Assembly (NCBI GenBank): GCA_910579465.1
Contig: CAJTUB010000007.1
Coordinates: 15,714-79,713, forward strand
DNA: 64,000 bases
Source: an uncultured Lachnospiraceae bacterium
GTDB taxonomy: Bacteria > Bacillota > Clostridia > Lachnospirales > Lachnospiraceae
Reading direction: 5' to 3'
Shown here piece after piece: positions 868 to 43,602 of this stretch. A program made the translations under genes and the position numbers. The first letter of the stretch is position 1. The number at the start of each line of letters is the position of its first letter. Below the pieces are notes generated by a model that saw nothing but the letters and a program-made list of their open reading frames with translations, had not been told where the DNA came from and searched no databases.

Positions 868-885
868 AAAATGCGGAAACTCGGT
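868..885 (+). repeat. 18-nt box copy (AAAATGCGGAAACTCGGT) upstream of the rny promoter
   Basis: It lies 9 nt upstream of TTGACA (895-900), a 17-nt spacer, then TAAAAT. Confidence 0.7.
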
Positions 886-972
886 CGGTTATACTTGACA
901 TAAGTTTTAAAAAAGTATAAAATTATTATGTTGTGTTATGTACAATGAAAATTGAATAAAGGAGGTGTTTCC

Positions 973-2532
973 GTGCAAGTAGATTTGGTTGTGCTTATTA
1001 TTGCAATCGTTCTGACTGCGGTTGTAGTTGGACTTGCCTGCTGGTTTCTCGCGATCGGTTACCGCAAGAAATTCGTGGAATCGAAAATCGGTTCTGCAGA
1101 GAGCATGGCAAGGGACATAAAAAATGAGGCATTAAAAGCGGCAGAAGCCATGAAGAAGGAAGCACTGCTCGAAATCAAGGAAGAGAAGCTGAAAACCCAG
1201 AACGAACTGGAGAAGGAAGCGAAAGAGCAGCGTTCTGATTTGCACCGCTACGAGCAGCGTGTCTTATCAAAGGAAGAAGCCATTGATAAGAAAGCCAGTG
1301 CATTGGAAAAAAGGGAAGGCAGGCTGAATGCAAAGGAAGCTGAGCTGGAGAAACTCAGAAACGAAGTAGAAGAGTTTCATCAGAAGCAGTTGCATGAGCT
1401 TGAGAAAATTTCCGGATTAACCTCCGAACAAGCAAAGGAATATCTTATTAAATCTGTTGAGGACGATGTAAAGCATGAAACTGCCATTCTGATTAAGGAG
1501 ATGGACAACCGTGCAAGGGAGGAAGCGGAGAAAAAGGCAAAAGAGTATGTCGTTACCGCTATTCAGAAATGCGCGGCGGACCATGTGGCAGAGTCTACCA
1601 TTTCGGTTGTTCCGCTGCCGAATGACGAAATGAAGGGACGTATTATCGGACGTGAAGGCCGTAATATCCGTACACTCGAAACCTTGACAGGCGTAGAACT
1701 TATCATTGACGACACGCCGGAAGCCGTAGTGCTTTCCGGATTCGATCCGATCCGGAGAGAGGTTGCAAGAATCGCACTGGAGAAGCTGATTATTGACGGC
1801 CGCATTCATCCGGCACGGATAGAAGAAATGGTAGAGAAAGCGCAAAAGGAAGTGGATACCCTGATCCGCGAGGAAGGCGAATCGGCAGCCCTGGAAGTAG
1901 GCGTGCATGGTATCCATCCGGAGCTGATTAAGCTCCTTGGTCGTATGAAGTTCCGTACAAGCTACGGTCAAAATGCATTAAAGCATTCCATTGAAGTTGC
2001 GATTTTATCCGGGCTTCTTGCCGGAGAAATCGGCGTAGACACAAGGCTTGCAAAGCGTGCGGGCCTGCTGCATGATATCGGAAAGTCCGTGGATCATGAA
2101 ATGGAGGGGACCCATGTACAGATTGGCGTTGATTTGTGCCGTAAGTACAAGGAGTCCGCAAATGTAATCAATGCGGTAGAGGCGCACCACGGTGATGTCG
2201 AGCCGCAGACTCTGGTTGCCTGCATTGTACAGGCTGCCGATACGATTTCCGCTGCCCGTCCGGGCGCAAGACGTGAGACGCTTGACGCGTACACCAACAG
2301 ATTGAAACAGTTAGAAGATATTGCCAACAGCTTTAAGGGGGTAGATAAGTCCTTTGCAATCCAGGCAGGAAGAGAAGTACGAGTTATGGTCGTACCGGAA
2401 CAGGTTTCCGACGACGATCTGGTACTGCTTGCCCGTGACTTATCGAAAAAGATTGAATCTGAGCTGGAGTATCCGGGTCAGATTAAGATTAACGTAGTGC
2501 GTGAAACAAGAGTCACAGACTACGCGAAGTAA
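973..2532 (+). CDS. rny: Ribonuclease Y
   Basis: GTG at 973 lies 7 nt after AAAGGAGG (958-965). The protein has an N-terminal TM helix, a coiled coil, a KH motif ([12 protein letters not shown]) and an HD motif (LLHDIGK). Confidence 0.93.
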
Positions 2533-2540
2533 GAAGGAAA

Positions 2541-2583
2541 AGAAGCCGTTACATAGAAAAGACTGTGTGACGGCTTCTTTTTG
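2541..2583 (+). terminator. Intrinsic terminator after rny
   Basis: AGAAGCCGT, a loop, then ACGGCTTCT followed by TTTTT. Confidence 0.75.
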
Positions 2584-2595
2584 CAGAAAAACAGG
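2578..2595 (+). repeat. Degenerate 18-nt box copy (TTTTTGCAGAAAAACAGG)
   Basis: It lies 10 nt upstream of TTGCAT (2606-2611), a 17-nt spacer, then TACAAT. It matches about 12 of 18 consensus positions. Confidence 0.4.
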
Positions 2596-2706
2596 GAAAA
2601 AAAGCTTGCATTTTTATATATGATATATTACAATAGGAAAGAAATCTCTGTTCGGTTGTATACAATAATACATTATGGACGGTTGAAAGAAGGAGAGGAA
2701 GAAACT

Positions 2707-3915
2707 ATGTCGCTTACGTTATCAAAGAAAGCACAGGCAGTAAAGCCTTCGTCCACGCTTGCCATCACCGCAAAGGCAAACGAGCTGAGGGCAAAAGGAC
2801 TTGATGTAGTCGGTTTTGGCGCAGGAGAGCCGGATTTTAATACGCCGGACAACATTTGCGAAGCAGCCGTCAATGCAATTCATGCCGGCTTTACAAAATA
2901 TACCCCGGCCTCCGGGACAATGGAGTTAAAGCAGGCAATCTGCAAAAAGTTTGAGCAGTTTAACAGACTGCATTACGAGCCGGCGCAGATTGTGGTAAGT
3001 AACGGAGGAAAGCATTCCTTAACCAATGTATTTTCTGCAATCCTGAATCCGGGAGATGAGGTTATTATTCCGTCTCCGTACTGGCTCAGCTATCCGGAAA
3101 TCGTTCGTCTTGCGGACGGCGTGCCGGTGATTGTACGCTGCGGCAAGGAGCAGAGCTATAAGATAACCGCAGAGCAGCTTGCAGCTGCCTGCACGGAAAA
3201 GACGAAAGCATTTGTACTGAATACGCCGAACAATCCGACCGGCATGATTTATACCAGGGAAGAGCTGGAGGCTCTGGCAAAGGTGATTGTGGAAAAGGAT
3301 ATCTACTGTGTTGCGGACGAGATGTATGAGAACCTGATTTATGAAGGAAATGAGGCGGTCAGCATTGCGTCGCTTAACGAGGAGATTTATAAGAGAACGA
3401 TTACCTGCAGCGGCGTGGCAAAGAGCTATGCCATGACCGGCTGGAGAATCGGCTATACGGGCTCTTCTGCTGAGATTGCAAAGCTGATGGGCAGTGTACA
3501 GAGCCATCAGACCTCCAATCCGAATTCCATTGCGCAGAAGGCGACCGTAGAGGCGCTTTTAGGTCCGCAGGATACGGTAGTTGCAATGAACAAGGAGTTT
3601 GACAGACGCCGGGACTATATGTATGAGCGTATCAGCAAGATGGAGCTGGTAGATGCAATAAGGCCGTTGGGGGCATTTTATATCTTTGTCGATGTCAGCA
3701 GTCTTCTTCCGAGGACCTATAAGGGGGAGAAAATCGGAAGTGTTGGCAGGCTGGCGGAGGTTTTAATCGAGGATTATATGACCGCGGTAATCCCGTGTGC
3801 GGACTTCGGCTTTGACGACCATATCCGTCTGTCCTATGCGATTTCCATGGAGCAGATTAAAAAGGGTCTAGACCGCATTGAGCGCTTTATTAAGGATACA
3901 GAGGAAAGCAAATAG
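2707..3915 (+). CDS. Class I PLP-dependent aminotransferase (aspartate aminotransferase-like)
   Basis: ATG at 2707 follows GAAGGAGAGG. Motifs include GAGEPDFNTP, the NPTG motif and SKSYAMTGWRIGY (PLP lysine). The tracked start at 2581 lies inside the promoter region. Confidence 0.88.
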   Translation: MSLTLSKKAQAVKPSSTLAITAKANELRAKGLDVVGFGAGEPDFNTPDNICEAAVNAIHAGFTKYTPASGTMELKQAICKKFEQFNRLHYEPAQIVVSNGGKHSLTNVFSAILNPGDEVIIPSPYWLSYPEIVRLADGVPVIVRCGKEQSYKITAEQLAAACTEKTKAFVLNTPNNPTGMIYTREELEALAKVIVEKDIYCVADEMYENLIYEGNEAVSIASLNEEIYKRTITCSGVAKSYAMTGWRIGYTGSSAEIAKLMGSVQSHQTSNPNSIAQKATVEALLGPQDTVVAMNKEFDRRRDYMYERISKMELVDAIRPLGAFYIFVDVSSLLPRTYKGEKIGSVGRLAEVLIEDYMTAVIPCADFGFDDHIRLSYAISMEQIKKGLDRIERFIKDTEESK

Positions 3916-3940
3916 AAACAAAAAGAAGGAAACCCGGGTT

Positions 3941-3978
3941 CCCGGAGCTTTGTAAAAGAGGCTCCGGGACTTTTTATT
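3941..3978 (+). terminator. Intrinsic terminator after the aminotransferase gene
   Basis: CCCGGAGC, a 12-nt loop, then GCTCCGGG followed by ACTTTTTATTT. Confidence 0.75.
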
Positions 3979-4039
3979 TCATTTTTTGGGGCAGCAGGAA
4001 GAGCGTGAAATTAGTATATAAAAACTTTTGTAAAGATAG

Positions 4040-4087
4040 TTGACAAATGTGTCTACATAATGTAAACTAAAGATAATCTACATGTAG
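4040..4087 (+). promoter_or_regulatory. blaI-blaR1-like operon promoter with two TACA/TGTA operators
   Basis: TTGACA (4040-4045), a 17-nt spacer, then TAAACT (4063-4068). The palindromes are TACATAATGTA (4054-4064) and CTACATGTAG (4078-4087). Confidence 0.6.
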
Positions 4088-4132
4088 TAAACCAACGTAG
4101 GGGAGTAAGGAATAAGAAAAAGGAGTAATGTC

Positions 4133-4501
4133 ATGTCAGAAATCCAATTAGGTACGGTAGAGTCGCAGTTTGCGGATATTATCTGGGAGCATGAGCCGGT
4201 GCATTCGCGCGAAGTCGTAAGGCTTGCGGAGGAAAGGCTGAACTGGAAGAAGTCAACTACCTATACGGTGCTGCGGCGGCTTTGTGAGAAGGGGATTTTT
4301 AAAAATGATAACAGCATTGTTTCCGCTGTGATGTCAAGGGCGGAGTTTTATTCGATGCAGAGCGAGATGTTTGTACAGGAGACCTTTGACGGCTCCCTTC
4401 CGGCATTTCTTGCCGCATTTACCGCGAGGAAGGGAAGATTATCGCCGGAGGAGGTTAAGGAGCTGCGCCGCATGGTGGCAGAGTATGAGGAGGAAGTATG
4501 A
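4133..4501 (+). CDS. BlaI/MecI/CopY-family winged-helix repressor
   Basis: 122 aa. WKKSTTYTVLRRLCEKG is typical of the family. The gene overlaps the downstream M56 gene by 4 nt. Confidence 0.88.
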   Translation: MSEIQLGTVESQFADIIWEHEPVHSREVVRLAEERLNWKKSTTYTVLRRLCEKGIFKNDNSIVSAVMSRAEFYSMQSEMFVQETFDGSLPAFLAAFTARKGRLSPEEVKELRRMVAEYEEEV

Positions 4502-6897
4502 CAGGAGAACTTTTTTTAACGCTTCTCAACAGGAGCATTAACGCAGGCTGGCTTGTCCTGGCGGTCCTGGCGCTGCGCCTGCTGTTCCGCAGGGCGCCGA
4601 AGGCTTTCTTTACCGCACTGTGGCTGTTAGTCGGTATCCGGCTGCTGTGTCCGTTTTCCTTTGAAAGCAGGTTCAGCCTGCTCCGGACCGCGGAGCCGGT
4701 AGCGCCGGAGCTGTTTTCTTCCGGGTTCCCTGCCGGGAAGGAAACGCTGCCCGGGGGCTCCGGCAGCTTTACGGAGCAGCCCCCGGCGTCAGAAGTGCCG
4801 GACGCTTTTGGGAAAACAGACGGGGTGCAGGGGACGCCTGCGCAAAGCGGCGGGAATGCAGCGGGCGCGGACGGGAGTAGTGCCGCAGGGAAGGACGGCA
4901 ATAGGACGCATTCGTTTTCCGTTCTGGAAGCGGTGTCCGTCGTCTGGCTTGCCGGTCTGGCAGGAATGCTGCTTTACGGCGCCCTCAGCTACCGGAGGAT
5001 TGCCCGCAGGGTAAAGGAGTCCGTCCCGCTTACGGGGAATGTCCGGCTTTGTGACGGTATCGGAAGCCCGTTTATCCTCGGCATTTTCCGGCCGCGGATT
5101 TATCTGCCCTCCGATTTAAACGAAGCGGACAGGGTTTATGTACTGGCACATGAGACGGCGCATCTGAAGTGCGGCGACCATATCTGGAAGCCGCTCGGCT
5201 TTCTGCTGCTTTCCGTGTACTGGTTCCATCCGCTTTTGTGGGTTTCCTATTCTCTGCTCTGCCGCGATATCGAGCTCGCCTGCGACGAAAGGGTGATAAA
5301 GGAGCTTGGGACAGAAAGCAGGAAATCCTATTCCACGGCACTGATTAACTGCAGTATCCCGCGCAGGATGCTGGCGGTATGCCCGTTAGCGTTCGGCGAG
5401 GTGAGTGTGAAAAGGAGGATAACATCGGTGTTACATTACAAAAAACCAGCCTTTTGGATTATTATCGCCGCCGCAGTCGTCTTTCTTGGTGTGGGGATTG
5501 GTTTCTTAAGCAATCCAAAGAAGGAAACGTCCGTTCAGGATATCATCGACTGGAAGGATAGCGCGCTGGAGGAGGCAATGCGGCATATAACCGGAATTAC
5601 GGACCGTCCGCTTACCTGGGAAGATGTGAAGCATATTACGGAGCTGGATTTGTCCGGCGCCGGGATTACGGATGTCAGTGCATTGGCAGGGCTTACAGGG
5701 CTTACGACACTGAAGCTTTCCGATAACGGGGCGTCCGTGTTCCGGAAATTGGAGCTTGGTACGTTGGAGGGACTTACCTCCCTTACTACCCTTGATTTAA
5801 GCAACAACGGGCTTACGACTGCCGATCTCGGAGCCCTCCCGCCGCTTGAAAACCTTACATCGTTGAATCTGAGCGGGAATCTGCTTACGGATGTCAAAAG
5901 CCTTGCAGTATCGCATTTTCCGGCGCTTACGACCTTAGATGTAAGTGAAAATGAGCTTACCGGCGCGGGCGGCTTAGGGCAGCTTCTTGGCCTTACTTCA
6001 TTGGATGTCAGCCAGAACCAACTCTTTACCGCAGACGGGGTTTCCAGCCTTAAAAATCTTAAGGAGCTGAAGCTTAGCGGGAACCGGGGGCTTGATTTGA
6101 AAGAGCTGTCCGGTCTTACGGAGCTTACCCTGCTGGATTTGAGCAGGAACAAGGAGCTTAAGCTTTCGGGGCTGCCGGAGCTTACAAAGCTTACGACACT
6201 GGACCTGAGCTTTAACGGGCTGACGGATATCAGCAGCCTTTCAAGGCTTCCGGCGCTTACAAGTCTGGAGCTGAGCTATAATAAGCCGGCGGACCTTTCC
6301 GTGCTGTCCGGTCTTACGAAGCTTAACGAGCTGCATTTAAGCGGGAACGGAATGACCGATACCAATGCGCTTTCCGGTTTTACGAGCCTTACCGTACTGG
6401 ATCTTAATGATAATGCACTGACGGATATCAGCGGCCTTTCAAAGCTTACGAATCTGAAAAGGCTGCTTCTCAGCCATAACGAACAGGCGGATTTCAGCAG
6501 TCTTTCCGGTCTTACGAATCTTACCTGTCTGTATCTGATGGGAAACGGGCTGACCGACATCAGCTTCCTGTCAGGGCTTACCGGGCTTACGGAATTAAGC
6601 TTATGCGATAACGGGCTGACCGACATTGAAAGCCTGTCGGAGCTGAAAAAGCTCCAGGTGCTGCTGTTAGCCGGTAATCAGCTGACGGATATCAGCGTCC
6701 TTTCGGGGCTCACGAGGCTTAACTGGCTGTCCCTGAGCGACAATGAAATTACGGAGGTTGACAGTCTCGCGGGACTTACGGAGCTTACCACGCTGGCATT
6801 GGAGCGGAACCGGATTGAGGATGTCAGTGCCCTTTCCGGGCTTACTCGCACCAGCAAGTGGCTGGACGGGAATGACATTAAGGTATGGCAGAAATAG
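4498..6897 (+). CDS. BlaR1/MecR1-type M56 metalloprotease homolog with a C-terminal leucine-rich-repeat ectodomain
   Basis: N-terminal TM helices, an HEXXH motif (LAHETAHLKCGDH), a further TM helix, then about 19-20 units of about 22 aa of the LxxLxLxxNxLTDISxLSGLT type. Confidence 0.85.
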   Translation: MTGELFLTLLNRSINAGWLVLAVLALRLLFRRAPKAFFTALWLLVGIRLLCPFSFESRFSLLRTAEPVAPELFSSGFPAGKETLPGGSGSFTEQPPASEVPDAFGKTDGVQGTPAQSGGNAAGADGSSAAGKDGNRTHSFSVLEAVSVVWLAGLAGMLLYGALSYRRIARRVKESVPLTGNVRLCDGIGSPFILGIFRPRIYLPSDLNEADRVYVLAHETAHLKCGDHIWKPLGFLLLSVYWFHPLLWVSYSLLCRDIELACDERVIKELGTESRKSYSTALINCSIPRRMLAVCPLAFGEVSVKRRITSVLHYKKPAFWIIIAAAVVFLGVGIGFLSNPKKETSVQDIIDWKDSALEEAMRHITGITDRPLTWEDVKHITELDLSGAGITDVSALAGLTGLTTLKLSDNGASVFRKLELGTLEGLTSLTTLDLSNNGLTTADLGALPPLENLTSLNLSGNLLTDVKSLAVSHFPALTTLDVSENELTGAGGLGQLLGLTSLDVSQNQLFTADGVSSLKNLKELKLSGNRGLDLKELSGLTELTLLDLSRNKELKLSGLPELTKLTTLDLSFNGLTDISSLSRLPALTSLELSYNKPADLSVLSGLTKLNELHLSGNGMTDTNALSGFTSLTVLDLNDNALTDISGLSKLTNLKRLLLSHNEQADFSSLSGLTNLTCLYLMGNGLTDISFLSGLTGLTELSLCDNGLTDIESLSELKKLQVLLLAGNQLTDISVLSGLTRLNWLSLSDNEITEVDSLAGLTELTTLALERNRIEDVSALSGLTRTSKWLDGNDIKVWQK
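5638..6870 (+). repeat. Coding tandem array of about 66-bp LRR units
   Basis: GCTTAC/GGGCTTAC...CTGAGC strings recur periodically, translating to LSGLTxLTxLDLSxN. Confidence 0.75.
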
Positions 6898-7173
6898 TCT
6901 GCCGCGGTAACAGGGAAACGTTGACAAAGGCGCGTCCCAATCTTCATAAATAGATATTCCGGGGGTGCCGCCCGATGGAGAAACGTTCTCTGTCGGAGTG
7001 GCAGCCCTGTTTTTATACGCGCGGTTTTGCATTTTGTATGCCGTATTCCGGGACATTTAAGACCGCTGGAAAAATAGTCTGAAATTATCACTGCGGGGAT
7101 TGACGGCATAAAAACCTCATGTTACGATAAAGGGAGCAGGGGAGAATGCCCTGCTAAAGAGAGAGGAGACACC

Positions 7174-11134: not shown

Positions 11135-12166
11135 CTATACCCGTCCGGCAATCTCATAGAGCAGTTGCTCTGTATCGTTCCAGCCGAGACACGGGTCAGT
11201 AATGGATTTGCCGTAAATATGCTCGCCGATTTTCTGGCAGCCCTCTTCAATATAGCTTTCAATCATAACGCCCTTGACAAAGGCGGCAATGTCCGGATTT
11301 ACCTTCCGGCTGTGCAGAATCTCGGAGACAATGCGCGGCTGCTCCGCAAACTGCTTATTGGAATTGTTGTGGTTTGCGTCTACGATAACCGCAGGATTTT
11401 TTAAATGCGGGCGCTCCGCATACATCGAAAGAAGACGGATTAAGTCCTCATAATGATAATTCGGAAGGCTCTGCCCGTGCTTGTTTACGGCGCCGCGTAA
11501 AATCGTGTGCGCGTACGGGTTGCCGGTTGTTTCCACCTCCCACTGGCGGAAGAGGAAGGTATGGGCATGCTGTGCCGCGGTAACGGAGTTCAACATCACC
11601 GAGAAGTCGCCGCTGGTCGGGTTTTTCATTCCTGCCGGGACGTCCATGCCGCTGATGGTAAGACGGTGCTGCTGGTCCTCTACGGAGCGTGCGCCGACGG
11701 CAACGTAGGAGAGAAGGTCGTCCAGATACGGCCAGTTTTCCGGATAGAGCATTTCATCTGCCGGGGTCAGATGGGTCTGCTCGATGGCATGCAGATGCAT
11801 TTTCCGCACCGCAATCAGCCCCTCCTGCATATCCGGCGCCTTTTCCGGATTCGGCTGGTGGGCAATCCCCTTATAGCCCTCGCCGGTGGTACGCGGCTTG
11901 TTGGTATAGATACGCGGTACTAAAAAAAGCTTATCCGCTACCTTTTCCTGAACATTTGCAAGGCGGCTGATATAGTCTAACACCGCAGGTTCGTTATCGG
12001 CGGAGCATGGTCCCACGATAACCATAAATTTATCGGACTCTCCCGCAATAATCCGTTTCATCTCGGCATCGCGGTCAGCCTTTGCTTTTGCCGCCTCTTT
12101 GGAAAGCGGATACAAGTCTTTTAATTCTTCCGGTGAAATCACCTCTCTGATACGTGTAAAGCTCAT
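11135..12166 (-). CDS. 3-deoxy-7-phosphoheptulonate (DAHP) synthase, class I
   Basis: Start MSFTRIRE at 12166 follows GGAAAGGA. Motifs IVGPCS and PRIYTNKPRTTGEGYKG. The longer tracked start runs through the promoter. Confidence 0.88.
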   Translation of the reverse strand: MSFTRIREVISPEELKDLYPLSKEAAKAKADRDAEMKRIIAGESDKFMVIVGPCSADNEPAVLDYISRLANVQEKVADKLFLVPRIYTNKPRTTGEGYKGIAHQPNPEKAPDMQEGLIAVRKMHLHAIEQTHLTPADEMLYPENWPYLDDLLSYVAVGARSVEDQQHRLTISGMDVPAGMKNPTSGDFSVMLNSVTAAQHAHTFLFRQWEVETTGNPYAHTILRGAVNKHGQSLPNYHYEDLIRLLSMYAERPHLKNPAVIVDANHNNSNKQFAEQPRIVSEILHSRKVNPDIAAFVKGVMIESYIEEGCQKIGEHIYGKSITDPCLGWNDTEQLLYEIAGRV

Positions 12167-12218
12167 ATACAATCCTTTCCGGACATCCCAAAGGGATTGT
12201 CCTTTGCATTCAAAGAAC

Positions 12219-12247
12219 ATTATAGAACTTGTGCGGGGGAGTGTCAA
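12219..12247 (-). promoter_or_regulatory. DAHP synthase promoter
   Basis: Minus strand reads TTGACA, a 17-nt spacer, then TATAAT. Confidence 0.6.
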
Positions 12248-12257
12248 TACTCGCTTC

Positions 12258-12509
12258 CTTAAGTTTCCGCATTTTACATAATCTTTTGTGTTCTGCAGGC
12301 TGTGCAGCAGCTTAGTTTTGCATGCGCAACACTGCACTGGACTTCCTCCAAGAGCTGTTAAGCCGCTCGGTAGCGTCCTCGCGCCTAATCAGCTCTATGA
12401 GGTGATTCCGGTTCCGTTAAGGAGGCGGTCCTTCGGACAAATGCAAAAATAAGATACCGTACAATCCATGGAACTTCTTAAAGCGGTTTAAAAAATGCGA
12501 AAACTCAAG
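12258..12509. repeat. Inverted pair of 18-nt boxes enclosing about 216 bp, each facing an outward promoter
   Basis: 12258-12275 reads AAAATGCGGAAACTTAAG on the minus strand. 12492-12509 reads AAAATGCGAAAACTCAAG on the plus strand. Confidence 0.7.
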
Positions 12510-12523
12510 AAGGGAAGTGCAGG

Positions 12524-12552
12524 TTGAAATTTCCGGGGAAATTAAATATAAT
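12524..12552 (+). promoter_or_regulatory. pdp promoter
   Basis: TTGAAA, a 17-nt spacer, then TATAAT. Confidence 0.6.
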
Positions 12553-12627
12553 AAAGACAAGAGAAAGATGGTGCCACTATGAAAGGAAAGGAAGTGAAGA
12601 GCCGGGACAGAGTCTGCCCGGCGGTAA

Positions 12628-13941
12628 ATGATGCGGATGTACGATTTGATTATGAAAAAGAAGCACGGGCTTGCCCTGTCGGATGAGGAAATCCGTTTTT
12701 TGGTCGCAGGCTATACAAACGGCGAGATTCCGGATTATCAGATGTCTGCGTTTTTAATGGCGGTCTGCTTTTGCGGAATGGACGAAAAGGAGACGCTTTC
12801 GCTTACGATGGCGATGGCAGAGAGCGGGGAGATGCTGGATTTGTCGGCAATCCACGGAAAGACTGCCGACAAGCACAGTACCGGCGGCGTGGGGGACAAG
12901 ACCTCGCTGGTTCTCGGACCGATGGTGGCGTCCCTCGGCGTCCCGGTGGCAAAGATGTCCGGCAGGGGACTCGGTCATACCGGAGGCACGATTGACAAGC
13001 TGGAGAGCTTTCCGGGCTTTTCCGTTTCCATATCGAATGAGCAGTTTATTTCCAACGTGAACCGGATGAAGCTTGCTATTATCGGGCAGACGGCGGAGCT
13101 CGCCCCGGCGGATAAGAAGCTTTATGCGCTACGCGACGTGACCGCGACGGTTGACGAGCTTTCCCTGATTGCTGCAAGCATTATGAGCAAGAAGCTGGCG
13201 GCAGGCTCGGATGTCATTGTGCTGGACGTAAAGGCAGGGAGCGGCGCGTTTATGAAGACCTATGAGGATGCAAGGCGGCTGGCGGAACGGATGGTGGACA
13301 TCGGGAACGGCGCCGGGCGGAAGACCTATGCCGTGATTTCCGATATGAACCAGCCGCTCGGGCTTGCGGTCGGCAATATTCTCGAGGTTAAGGAGGCAAT
13401 CGCGGCGTTAAACGGCAGGGCGCCAGAGGATGTAAACGAAGCCTGCATGACGCTTGCCTCCTATATGCTGCTTGGCACAGGGCGTGTTAAGGAGCTTCCG
13501 GAGGCGGAGGAGCTTTTGCGTAAGAGTATCGAAACCGGAGCGGCACTAAATAAGTTTGCAGAGTTTATCAAGGCGCAGGGAGGCGACGAGCGCTATGTAT
13601 ACGAGCCGGACCGCTTCCCGGAGGCGGCGTATTCCTGTGAGCTCACGGCGGAGACGGACGGCTATGTGTCGGAGATGCTTACCGAGGAAATCGGTCTTGC
13701 CTCGTTTATGCTCGGCGGCGGACGGGAGACGAAGGAGAGTGAAATCGACCTGACCGCCGGTATCGTATTCCGGAAGAAAACCGGGGCAAGGGTTTCTTCC
13801 GGGGACACGCTTGCCGTGCTGTATTCGGGCGATGCCGGAAAGCTTAAGGCAGGAGCCGCGCGGCTAAAAGGCGCAGTCCGTATCAGTACGGAAGCCTGCG
13901 CGCCGTTGCCGCATATTTTAGGTGTGGTAGATAAGTCATAG
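12628..13941 (+). CDS. pdp: Pyrimidine-nucleoside (thymidine) phosphorylase
   Basis: MRMYDLIMKKK..., HSTGGVGDKTSLVL and SGRGLGHTGGTIDKLE. The exact start is uncertain among ATGs at 12628, 12631 and 12637. Confidence 0.9.
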   Translation: MMRMYDLIMKKKHGLALSDEEIRFLVAGYTNGEIPDYQMSAFLMAVCFCGMDEKETLSLTMAMAESGEMLDLSAIHGKTADKHSTGGVGDKTSLVLGPMVASLGVPVAKMSGRGLGHTGGTIDKLESFPGFSVSISNEQFISNVNRMKLAIIGQTAELAPADKKLYALRDVTATVDELSLIAASIMSKKLAAGSDVIVLDVKAGSGAFMKTYEDARRLAERMVDIGNGAGRKTYAVISDMNQPLGLAVGNILEVKEAIAALNGRAPEDVNEACMTLASYMLLGTGRVKELPEAEELLRKSIETGAALNKFAEFIKAQGGDERYVYEPDRFPEAAYSCELTAETDGYVSEMLTEEIGLASFMLGGGRETKESEIDLTAGIVFRKKTGARVSSGDTLAVLYSGDAGKLKAGAARLKGAVRISTEACAPLPHILGVVDKS

Positions 13942-20761: not shown

Positions 20762-20838
20762 CTTGAATTTCCGCATTTTGTATGTATCTCTATGTCCCGG
20801 CGGCTGTACGGCCGGGACGTTCAATGTGGAAACTCAAG
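20762..20838. repeat. 77-bp inverted pair of 18-nt boxes around a GC hairpin, inside the sulP 5' UTR
   Basis: 20762-20779 reads AAAATGCGGAAATTCAAG on the minus strand. 20821-20838 reads TCAATGTGGAAACTCAAG on the plus strand. The central hairpin is GTCCCGGC...GCCGGGAC (20794-20818). Confidence 0.7.
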
Positions 20839-21253: not shown

Positions 21254-21408
21254 CCTTTGGTTTCCGTTAAATTGTTCCTCTTTTTATCCAAACAGACCAT
21301 TCTGATGATGTGACAATAAGCTCTGCAAATGTCAGACAGGATGCGTCTGTTTTGGCATAAATGGGAGGGACTTTTAAGATTGATTAAAAATGCCGAAACT
21401 TTTTTAGG
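21254..21408. repeat. Degenerate inverted pair of box-like sequences upstream of the ECF sigma gene
   Basis: CCTTTGGTTTCCGTTAAATT (21254-21273) and AAAAATGCCGAAACTTTTTTAGG (21386-21408). Confidence 0.4.
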
Positions 21409-23452: not shown

Positions 23453-23515
23453 CAGGCGCAGCGGTCCTTCAGACTTCCAGAATGTCAGATGCACAAAATG
23501 CGGAGCTCAAGGAGA
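23378..23515 (+). repeat. Left direct repeat (functional 3' end of the serpin gene plus downstream DNA)
   Basis: 23378-23474 aligns without gaps to 32614-32710, with 8 mismatches in 97 nt by hand count. Similarity resumes at the 17-nt box. Confidence 0.85.
23495..23511 (+). repeat. 17-nt box variant (AAAATGCGGAGCTCAAG) at the end of the left direct repeat
   Basis: It is one nt shorter than the consensus, the same variant as at 32763-32779. Confidence 0.6.
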
Positions 23516-32688: not shown

Positions 32689-32762
32689 CAGGCACAGCAC
32701 TCCTTTGGACAAATGCAAAATAAGATGCGATACCGCCGGCGGAACTTTTTTCGGGTGACTCA

Positions 32763-32779
32763 AAAATGCAGAGCTCAGG
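32763..32779 (+). repeat. 17-nt box variant (AAAATGCAGAGCTCAGG) at the end of the right direct repeat
   Basis: It lies 11 nt upstream of the -35 of the SNF2 promoter. Confidence 0.6.
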
Positions 32780-32790: not shown

Positions 32791-32819
32791 TAGAAAAAAT
32801 CCCGGAAATATGGTATACT
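32791..32819 (+). promoter_or_regulatory. Candidate promoter of the SNF2 helicase gene
   Basis: TAGAAA, a 17-nt spacer, then TATACT with TG at the extended -10 position. The 17-nt box lies 11 nt upstream. Confidence 0.5.
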
Positions 32820-37117: not shown

Positions 37118-37146
37118 AGTATAGCCCAAGCGGCAGATAATTTCAA
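37118..37146 (-). promoter_or_regulatory. Candidate promoter of the zinc-ribbon gene
   Basis: Minus strand reads TTGAAA, a 17-nt spacer, then TATACT. Confidence 0.5.
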
Positions 37147-37193
37147 CTATAATGTTTGACTGCCTGCACTTACTTGAGAGACAATTCAGATTA

Positions 37194-37222
37194 TTGTATA
37201 TTTTCATTGTATGTGATATAAT
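37194..37222 (+). promoter_or_regulatory. Candidate promoter of a small-RNA or leader transcript
   Basis: TTGTAT, a 17-nt spacer, then TATAAT with TG at the extended -10 position. Confidence 0.5.
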
Positions 37223-37228
37223 AGATCC

Positions 37229-37416
37229 AAGTGATACAATATATGAGAACGGAAAGCCAGTCGCCTCTATGAATACAGGAGCTGGTGTTTGTAGGAATCA
37301 GAGCAGCCAGGCGGGATACAGTAACTAAAAGACGATTCGTCAAGCTTGCAGACCGCATATCAAGGTGTCGGGTGCGCCCGGTTATTACGTTAAGGTAGTA
37401 GCCGGGCTGTTTTTTT
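37229..37416 (+). ncRNA. Candidate small RNA or structured leader of about 185 nt, class unknown
   Basis: The span has no ORF or RBS. It has its own promoter and ends in GCCCGG, 20 nt, CCGGGC, then TGTTTTTTT. An alternative CGGG-tgcg-CCCG hairpin shares the 5' arm of the terminator. Confidence 0.4.
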
Positions 37417-37440
37417 GTTTCAGGAGGTTTTTATGGATTC

Positions 37441-37469
37441 TTTACGGAACCGGTAAAATATGTTATACT
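37441..37469 (+). promoter_or_regulatory. Candidate promoter of the rSAM-DUF2344-rng operon
   Basis: TTTACG, a 17-nt spacer, then TATACT with an upstream TG. Confidence 0.45.
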
Positions 37470-37507
37470 GGTAAGCGTTTAGTAAGCTGTTTTTAAGGAG
37501 GCTGTTT

Positions 37508-39442: not shown

Positions 39443-39457
39443 GGAGGAAATAAAACG

Positions 39458-40258
39458 ATGAATGTCAGGGTACGCTTTGCAAAATACGGAGCGGTCAAGT
39501 TTGTAGGGCATCTGGATGTGCTGCGGTATTTCCAGAAGGCGGTTCGCCGTGCGGAGTTGGATATCGTATATTCGAAAGGGTATCATCCGCACCAGATTAT
39601 GTCGTTTGCGCTGCCGCTTGGCGTCGGGCTTACAAGCGATTCCGAATATATGGATATGGAGCTGTATGGAGCCTTTACACCAAAGGAGGTTACAGAACGT
39701 CTGGACGCGGCAATGACGGAGGGCTTTTCCGTAACGGGCTGCCGGGTGCTTCCGGAACCGGAAAACGGCAGGAAGCGGGAAGCCGCAATGTCCCTGATTG
39801 CAGCAGCCGACTATCTTGTTTCACTGAAGGACGGTTATGCGTTTCCGCTTGACGGGGAGGCGTTTTACAGGGAATTTCAGGCTTTCTGCGGGCAGGAGCG
39901 CATTCCGGTGTTAAAAAAGATGAAAAAGTCCGGAGAGGAGCAGGAGATGGACGTGAAACAGTTCCTTTACGGCATCGGCCGGGACAGGGAGGAGCTTCTT
40001 TCCAATACAGGGGCAGTGCGTCCGCCGGATGTGGTGACAGAGAGCTATCAGACGGAGGTGCGTTCCCGTGCGGAGCGGTATGAAAACGGAAGGACGCTTG
40101 CCATGCGGCTTTCCGCCGGCAGTGCCAATAATATCCGGCCGGAGCTTCTGACAGAGGCGTTCTGCCACGCCTGCGACACGGAATATAACCCGTATGCATG
40201 GCAGATTCACCGCTTTGACCTGTATGGGGGGACGGCGCCGGATTTTGAGAGGCTGTAG
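39458..40258 (+). CDS. Radical SAM-associated DUF2344 (TIGR03936-like) protein
   Basis: RFAKYGAVKFVGHLDVLRYFQKAVRRA N-terminus and the conserved partnership with the upstream gene. Confidence 0.8.
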   Translation: MNVRVRFAKYGAVKFVGHLDVLRYFQKAVRRAELDIVYSKGYHPHQIMSFALPLGVGLTSDSEYMDMELYGAFTPKEVTERLDAAMTEGFSVTGCRVLPEPENGRKREAAMSLIAAADYLVSLKDGYAFPLDGEAFYREFQAFCGQERIPVLKKMKKSGEEQEMDVKQFLYGIGRDREELLSNTGAVRPPDVVTESYQTEVRSRAERYENGRTLAMRLSAGSANNIRPELLTEAFCHACDTEYNPYAWQIHRFDLYGGTAPDFERL

Positions 40259-40285
40259 CCAGAAACAGGGGAGGAATGAAGAAAG

Positions 40286-41470
40286 ATGTACAGGTTAGTG
40301 ATTACGAAGCGGGATTCGTTTGTGTTTTCGGTCGTGTTTAACGGGGAGGGCAAGCCGGTGGAGCTGTATGCCGAGCCGGAGGGTACGCCGTCCCGGCTCG
40401 GCAATATTTATCTCGGTCATGTAATGAATGTGGTGCCAAATATCGAGGCGGCATTTATTGAAATTGAAGGCGGCTGTATGTGCTATTGCTCGCTAAGGGA
40501 GAAGACCTCCTATTTGTTCGGGCCGCATGCAAACCAGAACAGGCTCTGTCAGGGAGATTATGTTCTGGTACAGGTACAGCGTGAGGGAATTAAGACAAAA
40601 CAGCCCTCCGTCAGCGGAAAGCTGCAGTTTACAGGGAAATATCTGGTGCTGCTGCATGATACCAGAGGTGTGAAGATTTCACATAAAATTACGAAGCCGG
40701 AGGATGTCAGTCGGCTGAAAACACTGTTTTCTAATTGTGAAAATGAGAATTACGGACTAATCGTGCGCACAAACGCTCTACAAGTGTCGGATTTTCAGTT
40801 AAAAGCAGAGGAAGAGCGGCTGGTATCGTTTTACCGGACCGTCTGTGAAACCGGCATTCATAAGCAGAGAGGGAGCCTGGTGTACCAAAGCTTTCCGTGG
40901 TATATCGATTTGCTGCGGGACCTTCCGGAGCAGGAGCTTTCCGAGGTAGTGACCGACGACGCGGAGGTGTTTGCAAGGCTTGCCGAATATACAGAGCTGT
41001 TCCAGCCGGAGGATGTGAAAAAGCTCAGACTGTATACAGATGAAACGCTGTCCCTCGGGGCGCTGTATTCCCTGCAGAAGATAAAGGAGGAGGCGCTTTC
41101 GAAAACCGTCTGGCTGAAGTCCGGTGCTTCGATTGTCATCGAACCGACCGAAACGCTTACGGTAATTGATGTCAATACCGGTAAGGCGATTAACGGTAAA
41201 AAAACAGGCGATGAGATGTTTTACAAAATTAATGAGGAGGCGGCAAGAGCATGTATGCAGCAAATCCGCCTCCGGAATCTGTCAGGAATGATTCTGATTG
41301 ACTTTATCAATATGGAAAAGGAAGCTTATAACGAGCGGCTGTTACAGCTTCTGCGGGAGCTTGCCACAGAGGACCGGGTGCCGGTAACGGTCGTTGACAT
41401 GACTGGTTTAAAGCTTGTGGAGCTGACGAGAAAAAAGGTAAAAAAGCCACTGCATGAAATATTTTCCTGA
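40286..41470 (+). CDS. rng: Ribonuclease E/G family protein
   Basis: S1-like GNIYLGHVMNVVPNIEAAFIEI, and the catalytic region TVIDVNTGK. Confidence 0.85.
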   Translation: MYRLVITKRDSFVFSVVFNGEGKPVELYAEPEGTPSRLGNIYLGHVMNVVPNIEAAFIEIEGGCMCYCSLREKTSYLFGPHANQNRLCQGDYVLVQVQREGIKTKQPSVSGKLQFTGKYLVLLHDTRGVKISHKITKPEDVSRLKTLFSNCENENYGLIVRTNALQVSDFQLKAEEERLVSFYRTVCETGIHKQRGSLVYQSFPWYIDLLRDLPEQELSEVVTDDAEVFARLAEYTELFQPEDVKKLRLYTDETLSLGALYSLQKIKEEALSKTVWLKSGASIVIEPTETLTVIDVNTGKAINGKKTGDEMFYKINEEAARACMQQIRLRNLSGMILIDFINMEKEAYNERLLQLLRELATEDRVPVTVVDMTGLKLVELTRKKVKKPLHEIFS

Positions 41471-41478
41471 TTCAAGGA

Positions 41479-42684
41479 CTACTTTGGTATGGCTTTGAAA
41501 AATTCCTTGTCCCAGGAATATCCGCCGCAGGCGTCCAGTTCTTCTTCCGTCAGCATGAAGTGTCTGTTCATGCCGCCGCGGTCTGCCGTTGCGTCACAGT
41601 AATAGCCGGTTCCGTCCAGCACCAGATAGTTCCACATATGATGCTCTCCGTTGTATGTACCGGAAACCGTATAGTTTTCGATACCGGACATCGTTAAAAG
41701 CATTTCAAAGGCATGGCTGTATCCGCCGCAGATGGCGGTACCGTTTTGCAGCGCGCCCAGAGCTACCGTGGATTCATATGGCATGCTGCTGCGGTCGGTA
41801 TAATAGCGGAAGTCATAGGATACATTTTTGGTAATATAGGAATAGAGGGCTTCTACTTTTTCCCGCGTCGTCATCGTGCTTTTAGTCAGCTCCGGAAGCA
41901 GACTGCTGCACAATGCAAAGCTTTCATTGATGGCGTCCGTGCATTCGGACAGGGTTTTTCCGAGGGCTGGCGAAGCGATGAGTTCCGTTCCGTCCGCATT
42001 GAGCGTAAAGACAATCCAGCCATAGCCTGCCTGCAGCAATGCCCTGCTGACATCGTTAATATTTAATGCCGACTCTGTAATTGCAACCGGAAGTCGTTCA
42101 ATCCCGTTTATCATACTTTGTGCCATAACCTTTGCATCATACAGGGAGGCGATGGTATGGCTCCCGGCAGGAGTACCGGACGCATAGGCGCCTGTTTTGT
42201 ACGGCATATAGGAAAACCGGCACACAGCCGTAGTGTCTTCCACTGATACCGCAACGTCATAGGTATATTTTAGCTCCGGATATTTCGCTAAAACCGCATG
42301 ATAAATGTTTTTCAGGTCAATTTCGATTCCCCAGGTCCAGGTCATCCCGTCGACGTTAAGAACCACCTCCGGCTCCAGGCCGGTCATTGCTTCAAGGAAA
42401 CGGTTCTGAATATCTTCTGTTGTAAGGACTTCCGGAAGGTCCGGCAGCTTTGTGGGAGCTTCGGCAGAAGGCTCCGGAAGCTCCGGGATGGGTGTTGCGG
42501 ACGGCAGGGGCGTAACCTCATCCGGCGTTTCCGACGGCAGAGGGGGAACGCTTCCCGGCATCCCGGACGGCGTTATAGCATCGTTTGCAGGCAGCGTGGT
42601 ATCTTTGCCTGAGCAGGCGGCAAAAAGAAGTATTCCGGTGAATACCAGAAGGGAGCAGTGACGCAGTATCGTTTTTTTGTTCAT
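41479..42684 (-). CDS. Lipoprotein with a transglutaminase-like cysteine protease core
   Basis: Lipobox LFAAC, a Pro/Thr-rich linker, and CGGYSHAFEML...HMWN...D (Cys-His-Asp). Confidence 0.8.
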   Translation of the reverse strand: MNKKTILRHCSLLVFTGILLFAACSGKDTTLPANDAITPSGMPGSVPPLPSETPDEVTPLPSATPIPELPEPSAEAPTKLPDLPEVLTTEDIQNRFLEAMTGLEPEVVLNVDGMTWTWGIEIDLKNIYHAVLAKYPELKYTYDVAVSVEDTTAVCRFSYMPYKTGAYASGTPAGSHTIASLYDAKVMAQSMINGIERLPVAITESALNINDVSRALLQAGYGWIVFTLNADGTELIASPALGKTLSECTDAINESFALCSSLLPELTKSTMTTREKVEALYSYITKNVSYDFRYYTDRSSMPYESTVALGALQNGTAICGGYSHAFEMLLTMSGIENYTVSGTYNGEHHMWNYLVLDGTGYYCDATADRGGMNRHFMLTEEELDACGGYSWDKEFFKAIPK

Positions 42685-42745
42685 GGCAGATATCCTTTCT
42701 TTATGTAATAGAATACAGTTTTACAGACCGTCATAATGCGGCTCC

Positions 42746-43369
42746 TTATGGCTTTTCCAATACGCCGTGCAGAAGGATTTCCAGCTGGCGGCGGCACATT
42801 TCTTCATGCCTGCAAAGAAGCTCTTTGGTCGGTTTTTCTCCCCCGGACATAACGGGAAAACGTGTATTAAAAAAGTCCATGTAAAGCTTAAAATCCTCTA
42901 CAATCACGGCAACCGTCAGCCCTTTGCGCAGCTTCTGTCCGCTTAACAGTCCGGTCAGGATAGAGAGATTTAGCGCATCGAAGTCGTTGCGGCAGGCTGC
43001 AATTTCATTGCGGAGGGAGGACGGAGGCGTAAGGGCGGCATCCGTGAAAATCCCCTGATAAAGCGGATTTTCCGCAAAGAACAGAAGCCTTGCGTCAAAA
43101 TAGCGCTTCAGCTGCTGCTCCGGTGTCCCGGAGATGGGCTCTGAGGCATCTTTTAAACAGGAGGCTAATGCGTCGAAGCATTCCTTGACACATAGGAGGT
43201 AAAGCTCCTTCTTATCCTTGAAATAGTGATAAAGCATCCCTTTTGAAATGGAATGCTTTGCGCAAACCACATTGAGTGACGCATTTTCATAGCCGTTTTC
43301 TGAAAACTCCTCCATAGCTGCGGTAAGAATCCGCTGTCGTGCCAGCCTGTTTTTTTCTTCCTGTTTCAT
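42746..43369 (-). CDS. TetR/AcrR-family transcriptional regulator
   Basis: Start MKQEEKNR at 43369 follows GGAGGT. N-terminal HTH RILTAAMEEFSENGYENASLNVVCAKHSISKGMLYHYF. Confidence 0.88.
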   Translation of the reverse strand: MKQEEKNRLARQRILTAAMEEFSENGYENASLNVVCAKHSISKGMLYHYFKDKKELYLLCVKECFDALASCLKDASEPISGTPEQQLKRYFDARLLFFAENPLYQGIFTDAALTPPSSLRNEIAACRNDFDALNLSILTGLLSGQKLRKGLTVAVIVEDFKLYMDFFNTRFPVMSGGEKPTKELLCRHEEMCRRQLEILLHGVLEKP

Positions 43370-43391
43370 TGGTGTACCTCCAAACAAAAAC

Positions 43392-43405
43392 AGACCACAT
43401 GGTCT
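43392..43405. promoter_or_regulatory. Candidate TetR operator
   Basis: Inverted repeat AGACCA-CA-TGGTCT, just downstream of the tetR -10 element. Confidence 0.5.
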
Positions 43406-43413
43406 ATAATTGG

Positions 43414-43442
43414 ATTATAGCACGGGCGGCGGAGCATGTCAA
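43414..43442 (-). promoter_or_regulatory. tetR promoter
   Basis: Minus strand reads TTGACA, a 17-nt spacer, then TATAAT. The 18-nt box lies 11 nt upstream. Confidence 0.6.
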
Positions 43443-43453
43443 CCGGCTAAGAA

Positions 43454-43602
43454 CCTGAGTTTCCGTATTTTATTGTTACTATTCACAGCACCCCACCCCA
43501 TGCGCACTCGTCGCCCTTACGGGCTCCAGTCCCGCTCCTTGCGGAGCTAAGACTGCTTATGTGGGTGGGTAACATTTTATTCACAAAATGCAGAAACTCA
43601 GG
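43454..43602. repeat. 149-bp MITE-like element: inverted 18-nt boxes enclosing a structured core
   Basis: CCTGAGTTTCCGTATTTT (43454-43471) matches the reverse complement of AAAATGCAGAAACTCAGG (43585-43602) at 16 of 18 positions. Inner pairings are ACCCCACCCCA/TGTGGGTGGGT, GCCC-ttac-GGGC and GCTCC-ttgc-GGAGC. Confidence 0.7.

Follow-up and report, generated by a model that had tools for sequence, protein, structure and literature searches.

The 18-nt box AAAATGCGGAAACTCARG, which recurs upstream of promoters in the 64,000-nt stretch of DNA analysed here (the window), is the terminal inverted repeat of a non-autonomous, hairpin-forming MITE of 65-260 bp. The motif is probably a mark of targeted transposition rather than the binding site of a regulator. 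The explanation we favour, with confidence somewhat better than even, is a MITE family that inserts preferentially at a fixed position upstream of pre-existing sigma-A promoters. In what follows, G000 is the source genome and G006 its sister species at 90% nucleotide identity; the final G of the box is the outermost base of the element, and promoters are consensus predictions backed by cross-species conservation.

Box copies in the window

A scan allowing up to 3 mismatches finds 7 box matches in the window, against 0.14 expected (Table 1). An earlier note, made from the sequence alone, had linked at least seven boxes to promoters. Six are real (rny, DAHP synthase, pdp, SNF2, tetR and ddh), and at all six a promoter with a 17-nt spacer is read 9-14 nt from the box, as the note described. 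The seventh, near an aminotransferase, is doubtful: it matches at only 11 of 18 positions and runs into the T-run of the rny terminator, which makes membership of the family improbable. The copy proposed at 23495-23511 is real, having the same 1-nt deletion as the SNF2 box, and no promoter adjoins it. The pair seen in the sulP leader is recovered by the scan; this element shows no promoter phasing. The 85-nt similarity noticed between 12426-12509 and 32697-32779 is real: both stretches carry the same arm of the element together with a box. A pair at 21254-21408, judged by eye only (about 11/18 and 13/18 box matches), may be an old decayed element. Immediately upstream of the rny solo box lie an element-arm remnant (ccgggac...) and a small hairpin.

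Table 1. Box copies, elements and predicted promoters in the window
Feature	Position	Strand	Details
Box matches, up to 3 mismatches	868-885, 12492-12509, 20821-20838, 43585-43602	+	scan
Box matches, up to 3 mismatches	12258-12275, 20762-20779, 43454-43471	-	scan
Solo box (rny)	868..885	+	2 mismatches; scan and sequence reading
rny promoter (predicted)	TTGACA 895-900, TAAAAT 918-923	+	spacer 17; 9 nt from box
Rejected degenerate copy near aminotransferase	2578..2595	+	11/18 positions match
DAHP synthase promoter (predicted)	12219..12247; -35 12242-12247, -10 12219-12224	-	TTGACA-17-TATAAT; 10 nt from element end
Full-length 252-bp element	12258..12509	-	inverted boxes 12258-12275(-) and 12492-12509(+), arms
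Structured 127-nt core of 252-bp element	about 12319-12445		sense on minus strand
pdp promoter (predicted)	12524..12552	+	TTGAAA-17-TATAAT; 14 nt from element end
Short 77-bp element	20762..20838		two inverted boxes and hairpin arm; upstream of sulP start
Truncated copy	23495..23511	+	1-nt-deleted box and short arm; sequence reading
Half element	32697..32779	+	arm (…GGACAAATGCAAAATAAG…) and box with 1-nt deletion (32763-32779)
SNF2 helicase promoter (predicted)	TAGAAA 32791-32796, TATACT 32814-32819		spacer 17; 11 nt from box
tetR promoter (predicted)	43414..43442; -35 43437-43442, -10 43414-43419	-	TTGACA-17-TATAAT; 11 nt from element end
149-bp element	43454..43602		inverted boxes 43454-43471(-) and 43585-43602(+); between divergent tetR and ddh
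ddh promoter (predicted)	43612..43640	+	TTGACA-17-TATAAT; 9 nt from element end

The box as the terminus of a MITE family

Genome-wide, the box occurs 24 times exactly and 184 times with up to 3 mismatches, 78% of the latter being intergenic. Outward-facing inverted boxes form 41 pairs of 65-321 bp, which lack ORFs and fall into discrete size classes: short (65-122 bp), medium (about 150-180 bp) and full (about 250 bp). Conserved termini are evident when 17 full-length copies are aligned, and similarity between copies ends abruptly at the end of the box. The 8-bp flanks agree at 6 or more of 8 positions in 9 of 40 pairs, compared with 0.9% by chance; 9-bp flanks agreeing at 9/9 and at 7/9 positions also occur. 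Presence/absence polymorphism at orthologous intergenic sites, to which the earlier note had pointed as a check, is found both as genus-level empty sites and between sister species, where 27 box sites differ between G000 and G006 as a clean insertion against an empty site. Duplications at these polymorphic sites include GCTKGTGGA, GAAAGGAAA and TTTCTTCT. Because of the inverted termini, the 8-9 bp target-site duplications and the many presence/absence differences between sister species, we assign the elements to the MITEs.

From genus to genus the internal DNA of the elements changes, but the termini do not. Solo boxes would represent later internal deletions of elements; 87 of 104 face gene starts, against about 61% predicted by random loss of one end. 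A search of G000, 110 external loci and five other genomes turned up neither an autonomous element with box termini nor a transposase candidate. Candidates of the IS4, IS256, ISL3, IS1595 and Y1 types either lack box termini or belong to a type that is absent, and viral contigs and plasmids gave no match. Since no autonomous element or transposase candidate emerged, mobility in trans is what we infer.

Phasing to promoters

A promoter scoring at least 9.5/12 and starting 5-20 nt away adjoins 52 of the 184 box ends but only 0.3% of random positions. Among the 136 ends that face a gene start, 35% have a promoter at this score and 50% at a score of at least 8.5; the figure for random intergenic positions facing a gene start is 2.0%. 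Distances from element end to -35 are distributed as 4 at 9 nt, 15 at 10, 30 at 11 (the mode), 9 at 12, 4 at 13 and 4 at 14. Anchored on the -10 instead, 88 hexamers lie at offsets of 32-38, mode 34, where 9.2 are expected. This phasing is highly significant. It is repeated in about 40 other assemblies, where 78 of 165 ends are phased at 10-14 nt. About half of gene-start-facing ends, and likewise about half of all copies, are not phased to a promoter; several unphased ends lie in 5' leaders by ribosome-binding sites, or by stop codons.

The phased feature is a complete promoter. Of the 44 TTGACA-like hexamers 9-12 nt from an end, 33 are accompanied by a -10 matching at 5/6 or better, compared with 2.9%. 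TTGA that is correctly placed but lacks a -10 stays at background (2 of 184), whereas with a -10 it is enriched about 55-fold. Phased -10 hexamers with a weak -35 number 30, against 7.9 expected, and 14 of these 30 have the extended -10 TG. The cue would accordingly appear to be the whole promoter, for example as bent DNA or as DNA occupied by RNA polymerase holoenzyme, rather than the sequence TTGACA.

Age of the promoters

The orthologous site of the 252-bp element is empty in 6 species, and in G003 an 81-bp short element sits at the same left junction. The DAHP synthase promoter is older than the element: each of the 9 genus members compared has kept it, including 6 that lack the element. 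At the empty site, 8 nt separate the -35 boxes of the divergent DAHP synthase and pdp promoters. On the pdp side, the flank including a leader of roughly 115 nt occurs only in G000 and G006, where it stands in place of the older pdp promoter of other species; it has no second copy in the genome.

The 149-bp element is present in G000 and G006 only. G019 has the same divergent tetR/ddh pair without it, and with the tetR promoter in place; the ddh promoter is kept in all 10 genomes compared, 8 of them element-free. Both promoters pre-date the element, as do promoters conserved at the empty state of several polymorphic sites. Because orthologous empty sites already have the promoters, the element neither carries nor creates them.

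Alternative explanations

The strongest alternative, which we consider unlikely, is that the box functions in cis from its position at about -46 to -63, as a site for a class-I-type activator, an UP-like element or a host-factor site, spread by the MITE and kept by selection wherever it lies in register. Like the site of a class I activator or global regulator, the box holds a fixed position relative to both -35 and -10 (modes of 11 and 34 nt), and in several genera one and the same 18-mer bounds interiors that are otherwise unrelated. A functional box would also explain the excess of solo boxes facing gene starts, but purging of deletions that reach into the promoter would do so as well. Deletions themselves point both ways, one internal deletion having retained the promoter-side box and two polymorphic cases having lost it. 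Conservation speaks against function. At loci common to G000 and G006 the box is 79-81% identical, below the -35 (97.0%), the -10 (98.5%) and even the promoter spacer (88.7%), and boxes beside promoters are no better conserved than boxes elsewhere. The box shows no detectable purifying selection, its rate of change being similar to that of near-neutral DNA or higher. Moreover, the phased fraction is 44% for young polymorphic ends and 42% for old shared ends, and the same promoters are conserved in box-free sister species, most species of the genus having box-free orthologs. The box is neither palindromic, nor repeated in dimer-like fashion, nor A/T-rich. An UP element in particular was rejected: it needs A/T-rich sequence at -40 to -60 conserved with the promoter, and the box, which reads GGAAACTCAAG over about -56 to -46, is about 80% identical between species. 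Retention of phased copies alone would, in addition, need most other intergenic insertions to be harmful.

The family is patchy, occurring in a few lineages of gut Lachnospiraceae. Of 151 genomes sampled across Lachnospiraceae at one per genus, 2 contain an exact box, which is missing from 149 of the 150 other genera; within its own genus, expansions are seen in only 3 of 20 species, and most species lack the box. Because the box is under no detectable purifying selection, equally phased in young and old copies and absent from those 149 genera, the site of a global factor is disfavoured. The earlier note's suggestion of such a site, or of a promoter architecture typical of the organism, is not supported, on these grounds and because about half of the copies do not lie beside a promoter.

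Random insertion followed by purifying selection is still less probable. Here the survivors would be squeezed into a short neutral gap that separates one transcription unit from the promoter of the next and would mimic phasing. Some empty sites are indeed tight, such as the DAHP synthase/pdp site above and one with a terminator T-run 5 nt from a -35; for ends facing gene 3' ends the median distance to the stop codon is 18.5 nt, and harm to the promoter below about 9 nt would account for the lower bound. However, the 314 box-free promoter regions leave 120 nt free upstream of the -35 at the median, so that uniform insertion predicts 1-4% of ends at 10-11 nt, where about 52% are observed. The distribution also drops steeply beyond 12 nt, the phased fraction does not rise with insertion age, and another intergenic repeat family has a promoter within 20 nt at 0 of 85 ends.

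That the element carries or creates outward promoters in the manner of Correia elements, inside its end or moving along with it, is very improbable and contradicted at every locus tested: near-consensus promoters do stand at both ends of several copies, and the promoter-bearing pdp flank is new in G000 and G006, but that flank is single-copy, target duplications directly adjoin the box, copies have neither the intervening spacer, the -35, the promoter spacer nor the -10 in common, and the DAHP synthase, ddh, tetR and several other promoters are unchanged at empty sites, so that of the earlier note's small non-autonomous repeat the MITE-like terminus with its 8-9 bp duplications stands and the outward promoters do not.

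Discussion

If promoters are the target, the phasing would be set by target choice at insertion. The element end would be placed 10-11 bp (range 9-14) from the -35 hexamer, with the duplicated 8-9 bp spanning roughly -45 to -38, and the core promoter and its proximal upstream region would stay intact afterwards. The box would then record where integration was aimed, rather than being a regulatory site that selection maintains. As all copies seen have passed some selection, targeting is only partly distinguished from very fast selection. A tentative proposal is that a putative transposase recognises promoters that sigma-A RNA polymerase occupies or bends, or else a protein bound at them, and cuts at a constant distance of about one helical turn upstream of the -35. 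If so, this would be a bacterial counterpart of integration guided by the initiation complex, as with Ty3 and Tf1, and the element would gain a safe landing site in a compact genome. Ty3 integrates at Pol III start sites and Tf1 at Pol II promoters in eukaryotes. They share with the present family integration at a fixed short distance from a landmark of transcription initiation, sparing coding DNA; the likeness would be functional only, the present family being a bacterial DNA transposon and not a retroelement.

Several known systems resemble the family in part. Terminal repeats of IS10/IS50-type elements of the IS4 family and of their miniatures start with CT, are about 18 nt long and come with 8-9 bp duplications, and the box terminus shares these features. 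Among the IS4-family (DDE_Tnp_1) and IS256-family copies inspected in box-bearing genomes, none ends in the box; DDE_Tnp_1 ORFs occur in several such genomes, each inspected one with different termini, and G003 has none. REPINs rely on a RAYT gene, which encodes a Y1 transposase, and do not duplicate their target. REP/REPIN sequences are, like the present elements, intergenic and high-copy, forming long hairpins of two inverted units whose drifting arms are kept complementary. The clear target duplications here differ from them, and Y1_Tnp, present in only 4 of 10 genomes and missing from the element-rich G003, G041 and G042, is patchy; on both counts identity with REP/REPIN-RAYT was rejected.

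Correia elements (CREE/NEMIS) of Neisseria duplicate TA. They too are bounded by inverted repeats, measure 100-250 bp, usually lie just upstream of genes and can form hairpins in transcripts. Their ends can generate promoter sequences, and IHF binding is described (PMC2649163). The duplication here is of 8-9 bp rather than TA, and the promoters are wholly outside the element and older, so identity with Correia/CREE was also rejected.

The closest likeness is to prokaryotic MITEs (e.g. MITEAba12, PMC6382973; reviewed in PMC10969869), which are similarly small, ORF-less, multi-copy, hairpin-forming and mostly intergenic, with terminal inverted repeats, 8-9 bp duplications and a presence that varies among close relatives. 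The present family differs in that about half of its gene-facing ends are in nucleotide-level register with a pre-existing -35 and -10, and in that the same termini recur across genera around replaced interiors. The 2024 review (PMC10969869) describes no targeting in register with promoters, and our search of the prokaryotic MITE literature found no nucleotide-precise promoter homing.

Should the phasing arise at the insertion step, these elements would be bacterial DNA transposons that home to promoters with nucleotide precision. For motif discovery the family is a warning: what looks like a promoter motif, strongly enriched and locked in position, can turn out to be the scar of a transposon instead of a site for a regulator. 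In uncultured Lachnospiraceae the family could act as a natural label for where promoters lie, and the enzyme, if found, might become a tool for promoter-proximal integration. Homing of this kind would also account for the persistence of selfish repeats in gene-dense gut Firmicutes with no harm to genes.

Box copies and the elements they terminate

With up to three mismatches allowed, the 18-nt box AAAATGCGGAAACTCARG has seven matches in the window against 0.14 expected. The earlier note had linked seven copies to promoters. Reading every listed site leaves six of these standing, as listed in the table; the supposed aminotransferase copy was dropped because only 11 of its 18 positions match and the rny terminator's T-run overlaps it. 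A further copy, at 23495, is real and has no promoter, and the pair described at 20762-20838 is one 77-bp element. The studied assembly, G000 (3.32 Mb, 74 contigs, 49% G+C), contains 24 exact boxes, and 184 when up to three mismatches are allowed; the window is C7:15714-79713 of this assembly. Intergenic enrichment was found, with 144 of the 184 lying between genes by crude ORF calling, while about 12% of the genome is non-coding.

Similarity between copies extends inward from the box and ends abruptly at its last base. Forty-one outward-facing inverted box pairs occur in G000; by length they form three groups, of 65-122 bp, of about 150-180 bp and, with 17 copies, of about 250 bp. Aligned full-length copies consist of the 18-nt terminus, arms of about 50 nt and a conserved core of about 127 nt; arm sequence varies among copies, and the two arms within any single copy are complementary. 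Flanking 8-mers form direct repeats (at least 6 of 8 positions) at 9 of 40 pairs, compared with 0.9% by chance, and one pair shows a perfect 9-bp target duplication. No ORF was found inside the box elements. Inverted termini, duplications and an ORF-less interior are features of MITEs, and, a known parent excepted, the family shows every testable feature of a prokaryotic MITE. The identity of the box as an element terminus is secure. Rfam returned no family match for the window at gathering score and none for the full element at E values up to 10.

Directly upstream of the solo rny box is a small hairpin, GGCTGAAGTG...CACTTCAGCC, with AAAAAATG repeats on its flanks. Its seat resembles a remnant element arm, and the hairpin may be a nested micro-insertion.

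Positions of box copies, elements and associated features
Feature	Position	Description
rny box		9 nt, then TTGACA-17-TAAAAT
DAHP synthase box		10 nt to promoter
pdp box		14 nt to promoter
SNF2 helicase box		1-nt deletion in box; 11 nt to promoter
tetR box		11 nt to promoter
ddh box		9 nt to promoter
Box pairs in window	12258/12509; 43454/43602; 20762/20838	Each pair is one element
Hairpin at rny box	window 830-867	
pdp flank	window 12510-12627	Promoter and leader
Leader insertions	G006 S1:267950-268200 (cases 18/20); G000 C7:110782 (case 26); also cases 1/5, 15	Duplications GAAAGGAAA, AGAAGAAA
Palindrome TTGTATAATTGTATACAATTT	L121, L122, L124, L126, L127	Upstream of ddh in G001, G018, G015, G005, G011
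Putative absorbed end (case 24)	G000 C4:309960-310017	
Core module	window ~12319-12445	Minus strand sense; other copies e.g. C1:577094-577221, C4:42564-42690
Split cores	G000 C1:316611-316863; C11:1932-2218; C5:133305-133503; C4:43235-43455	
GGGGCTGCGCTTCGTGCGACAGCCCC hairpin family	e.g. G000 C3:404555-404618	85 ends
IS4-family element (L196)	A. ethanolgignens C1:153803-155577	1775 bp

Insertion polymorphism between sister species

Presence/absence polymorphism between related genomes, which the earlier note had envisaged, was found in 772 kb compared between G000 and its sister species G006 (90% nucleotide identity): 55 box sites are common to both, 27 occur in one genome opposite a clean gap, and 21 have diverged. 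The gaps include textbook insertions with duplications GCTKGTGGA, GAAAGGAAA and TTTCTTCT. At one compared site (case 4) a full 246-bp element in G006 stands opposite a solo box in G000, showing that solo boxes can stem from internal deletion; two deletions (cases 14 and 23) took out the promoter-side box. In case 24, a box-like sequence in G000, …GCAGAAGCTTAAG, supplies the last codons and stop of the upstream ORF and adjoins another copy of the box; the coding sequence appears to have taken in an old element end.

Element ends are phased to promoters

Promoters were scored at 9.5 or more of 12 against TTGACA-16..18-TATAAT, starting 5-20 nt from the element end. By this measure a promoter follows 52 of the 184 ends, compared with 0.3% of random positions, in agreement with the phasing described from the window. 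The share is 35% for the 136 ends with a co-directional gene start ahead of them, rising to 50% at a score of at least 8.5; the control, random intergenic positions facing a gene start, gives 2.0%. The distance is exactly 10 or 11 nt in 45 of 75 cases among such gene-facing ends. A scan anchored on the -10 hexamer found 88 hexamers at offsets 32-38 where 9 were expected; 32 of these pile up at offset 34. Ends in external genomes are phased alike, at 10-14 nt, in 78 of 165 cases. A second intergenic repeat family of G000, the GGGGCTGCGCTTCGTGCGACAGCCCC hairpin, served as negative control and has a promoter within 20 nt at 0 of 85 ends. The promoter phasing of box ends is real and specific.

About half of the box ends are not beside a promoter, and targeting would therefore be a strong preference rather than absolute. 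Some unphased ends point towards stop codons, which lie a median of 18.5 nt away. Four or five young insertions with purine-rich duplications lie in 5' leaders, immediately before ribosome-binding sites, and may represent a second preferred type of target.

The promoters are older than the element

Between DAHP synthase and pdp, six element-free species have divergent promoters back to back, with 8 nt separating the two -35 hexamers. The genus member G003 carries an 81-bp element and G000/G006 a 252-bp element, both with the same left junction, and the DAHP synthase promoter is kept throughout the species compared. The ddh promoter is conserved in 10 of 10 genomes compared, and in G019, another member of the genus, tetR and ddh are likewise divergent, their -35 boxes are separated by 27 nt, and the element is absent. 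At polymorphic G000/G006 sites the promoter is retained in the empty allele; the case 27 junction coincides precisely with the end of the box, at a distance of 10 nt from the -35 hexamer. Since promoters are present at these empty sites, the element neither carries nor creates them, which contradicts the earlier suggestion of Correia-like outward promoters.

Two of these loci show further differences. On the pdp side, the promoter and leader of about 115 nt in G000/G006 are unrelated to those of seven other genus members; an older promoter of the TTGCGG-17-TAAAAT type has been replaced, and a search of the genome for a paralog of the new flank found none. Directly upstream of the ddh -35 hexamer, element-free species have a conserved palindrome, TTGTATAATTGTATACAATTT, that resembles an operator; in G000/G006 the element occupies this place and the palindrome is absent.

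Three runs labelled TRANSCRIPTOMIC (X1-X3, mouse/rat gut) yielded no information on transcription start sites or expression for window positions 11700-13100. Their contigs have flat depth, reach up to 130-157 kb and break inside the repeat core, like metagenomic DNA, and because of this behaviour they are unusable as such evidence.

Search for a mobilizing enzyme

No autonomous copy was found among widely spaced inverted box pairs, long G000 repeats, or five transposase families in ten genomes, a survey in which the ends of each plausible IS were examined. Where paired boxes lie more than 350 bp apart, the DNA between them contains only ordinary genes (ABC binding protein, RecQ, TetR plus hydrolase, others), and the long repeats are paralogs of S8 peptidase and aldo-keto reductase and an IS30-type fragment. 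ISL3 is absent from all genus members searched and present only in two further genomes, G042 and G043; IS1595 is absent in 10 of 10 genomes. Genes of the DDE_Tnp_1, Y1_Tnp and IS256 types occur patchily, with unrelated termini of their own. An IS4-family element of A. ethanolgignens lies 9 nt from a box; it was rejected as parent, having its own 33-nt inverted termini, GTTACTGTTCACACCCAATGTCATTTACTTAAG, and merely adjoining the box. No hit came from viral contigs or plasmids. The CT-initial terminus and duplications of 8-9 bp would be compatible with an IS4-family origin.

The core module and other repeats

At the apex of full-length box elements sits a 127-nt core module, TGCATTTGTCCGAAGGACC...GGAATCACCTCTTAG...CTTAGAGGAAGTCCGG...TGCA, present in about 50 copies in G000 and in 1-12 copies in most species of the genus. 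It also caps a different long hairpin without the box, and may be an independent module that colonizes hairpin apices. The core has no Rfam match. An RNA function was rejected for lack of any orientation bias relative to neighbouring genes, despite covariation in the central stem (pairs AU 11, UA 10, CG 5; UA 18, CG 10). Four G000 cores are interrupted near core position 52 (in the C4 copy, at position 88-99) by about 70-160 nt of inserted DNA, which suggests nested insertion of other small elements, at a recurrent spot in three copies. The second G000 repeat family, GGGGCTGCGCTTCGTGCGACAGCCCC, is a GC-rich hairpin, REP-like or terminator-like, often with a T-run behind it.

Distribution across taxa

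Only three members of the genus, G000, G003 and G006, carry full elements in abundance. Among 150 other genera of the family, sampled by one genome each, a single genome has an exact box, in one copy. The exact 18-mer occurs in about 40 other assemblies, mostly of Lachnospiraceae and other Clostridia, including Lacrimispora, Clostridium sp. AT4, 'Acetivibrio' ethanolgignens and several mouse and human gut MAGs. In these assemblies the box caps quite different, genome-specific interiors or stands solo. The elements of Lacrimispora and AT4 are almost perfect hairpins of 246-248 bp (-108 to -166 kcal/mol) with a few internal motifs in common with the G000 type. Patchy spread, conserved termini and replaceable interiors are what a transposase-recognized end predicts, and not what a host regulator site predicts.

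Explanations for the phasing

A functional box, retained by selection next to promoters, would better explain one observation above all, that solo boxes face gene starts in 87 of 104 cases against about 61% expected, but that excess can also come from the purging of deletions that reach the promoter. Other evidence disfavors such retention. At loci common to G000 and G006, box identity is 79-81%, a figure inflated by ascertainment, whereas the adjacent -35 hexamers are 97.0%, the -10 hexamers 98.5% and the promoter spacers 88.7% identical. Promoter-adjacent boxes are no better conserved than other boxes, and young polymorphic ends are phased as often as old common ones (44% and 42%). With neither constraint nor taxonomic conservation, the box differs from an UP element or activator site, and the earlier proposal of a global-factor site or an organism-typical promoter architecture is not supported. 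Crowding combined with purifying selection does not suffice: -35 boxes have a median of 120 nt of free DNA upstream, uniform insertion predicts 1-4% of ends at 10-11 nt against about 52% observed, and the GGGGCTGCGCTTCGTGCGACAGCCCC control family is unphased.

Target choice at insertion is the remaining explanation, plausible but unproven. The target site itself has merely a mild A-rich bias. A transposase that reads TTGACA was rejected, since TTGA that has the right offset but lacks a -10 is no commoner than background (2 of 184 vs 1.5%); with a good -10 it is enriched about 55-fold. Promoters with a weak -35 are still phased (30 vs 8 expected), 14 of them with an extended -10 TG. A pseudo-end CTTGAC was rejected as cue because box-free promoters, too, often have C at position -1.

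Literature searches found nothing relevant on the box sequence, no description of this family among Lachnospiraceae MITEs, and no -35-phased MITE insertion, including in a 2024 review of prokaryotic MITEs. The family differs from Correia elements in its duplication and in that its promoters are external and older, and from REPINs in having duplications and no consistent RAYT gene. With target choice at insertion, the cue would follow the promoter as a whole, and might be DNA bent or occupied by holoenzyme, or else the core promoter together with the shape of its A-rich proximal upstream region. In operation, the family resembles eukaryotic retroelements whose integration is guided by initiation complexes.
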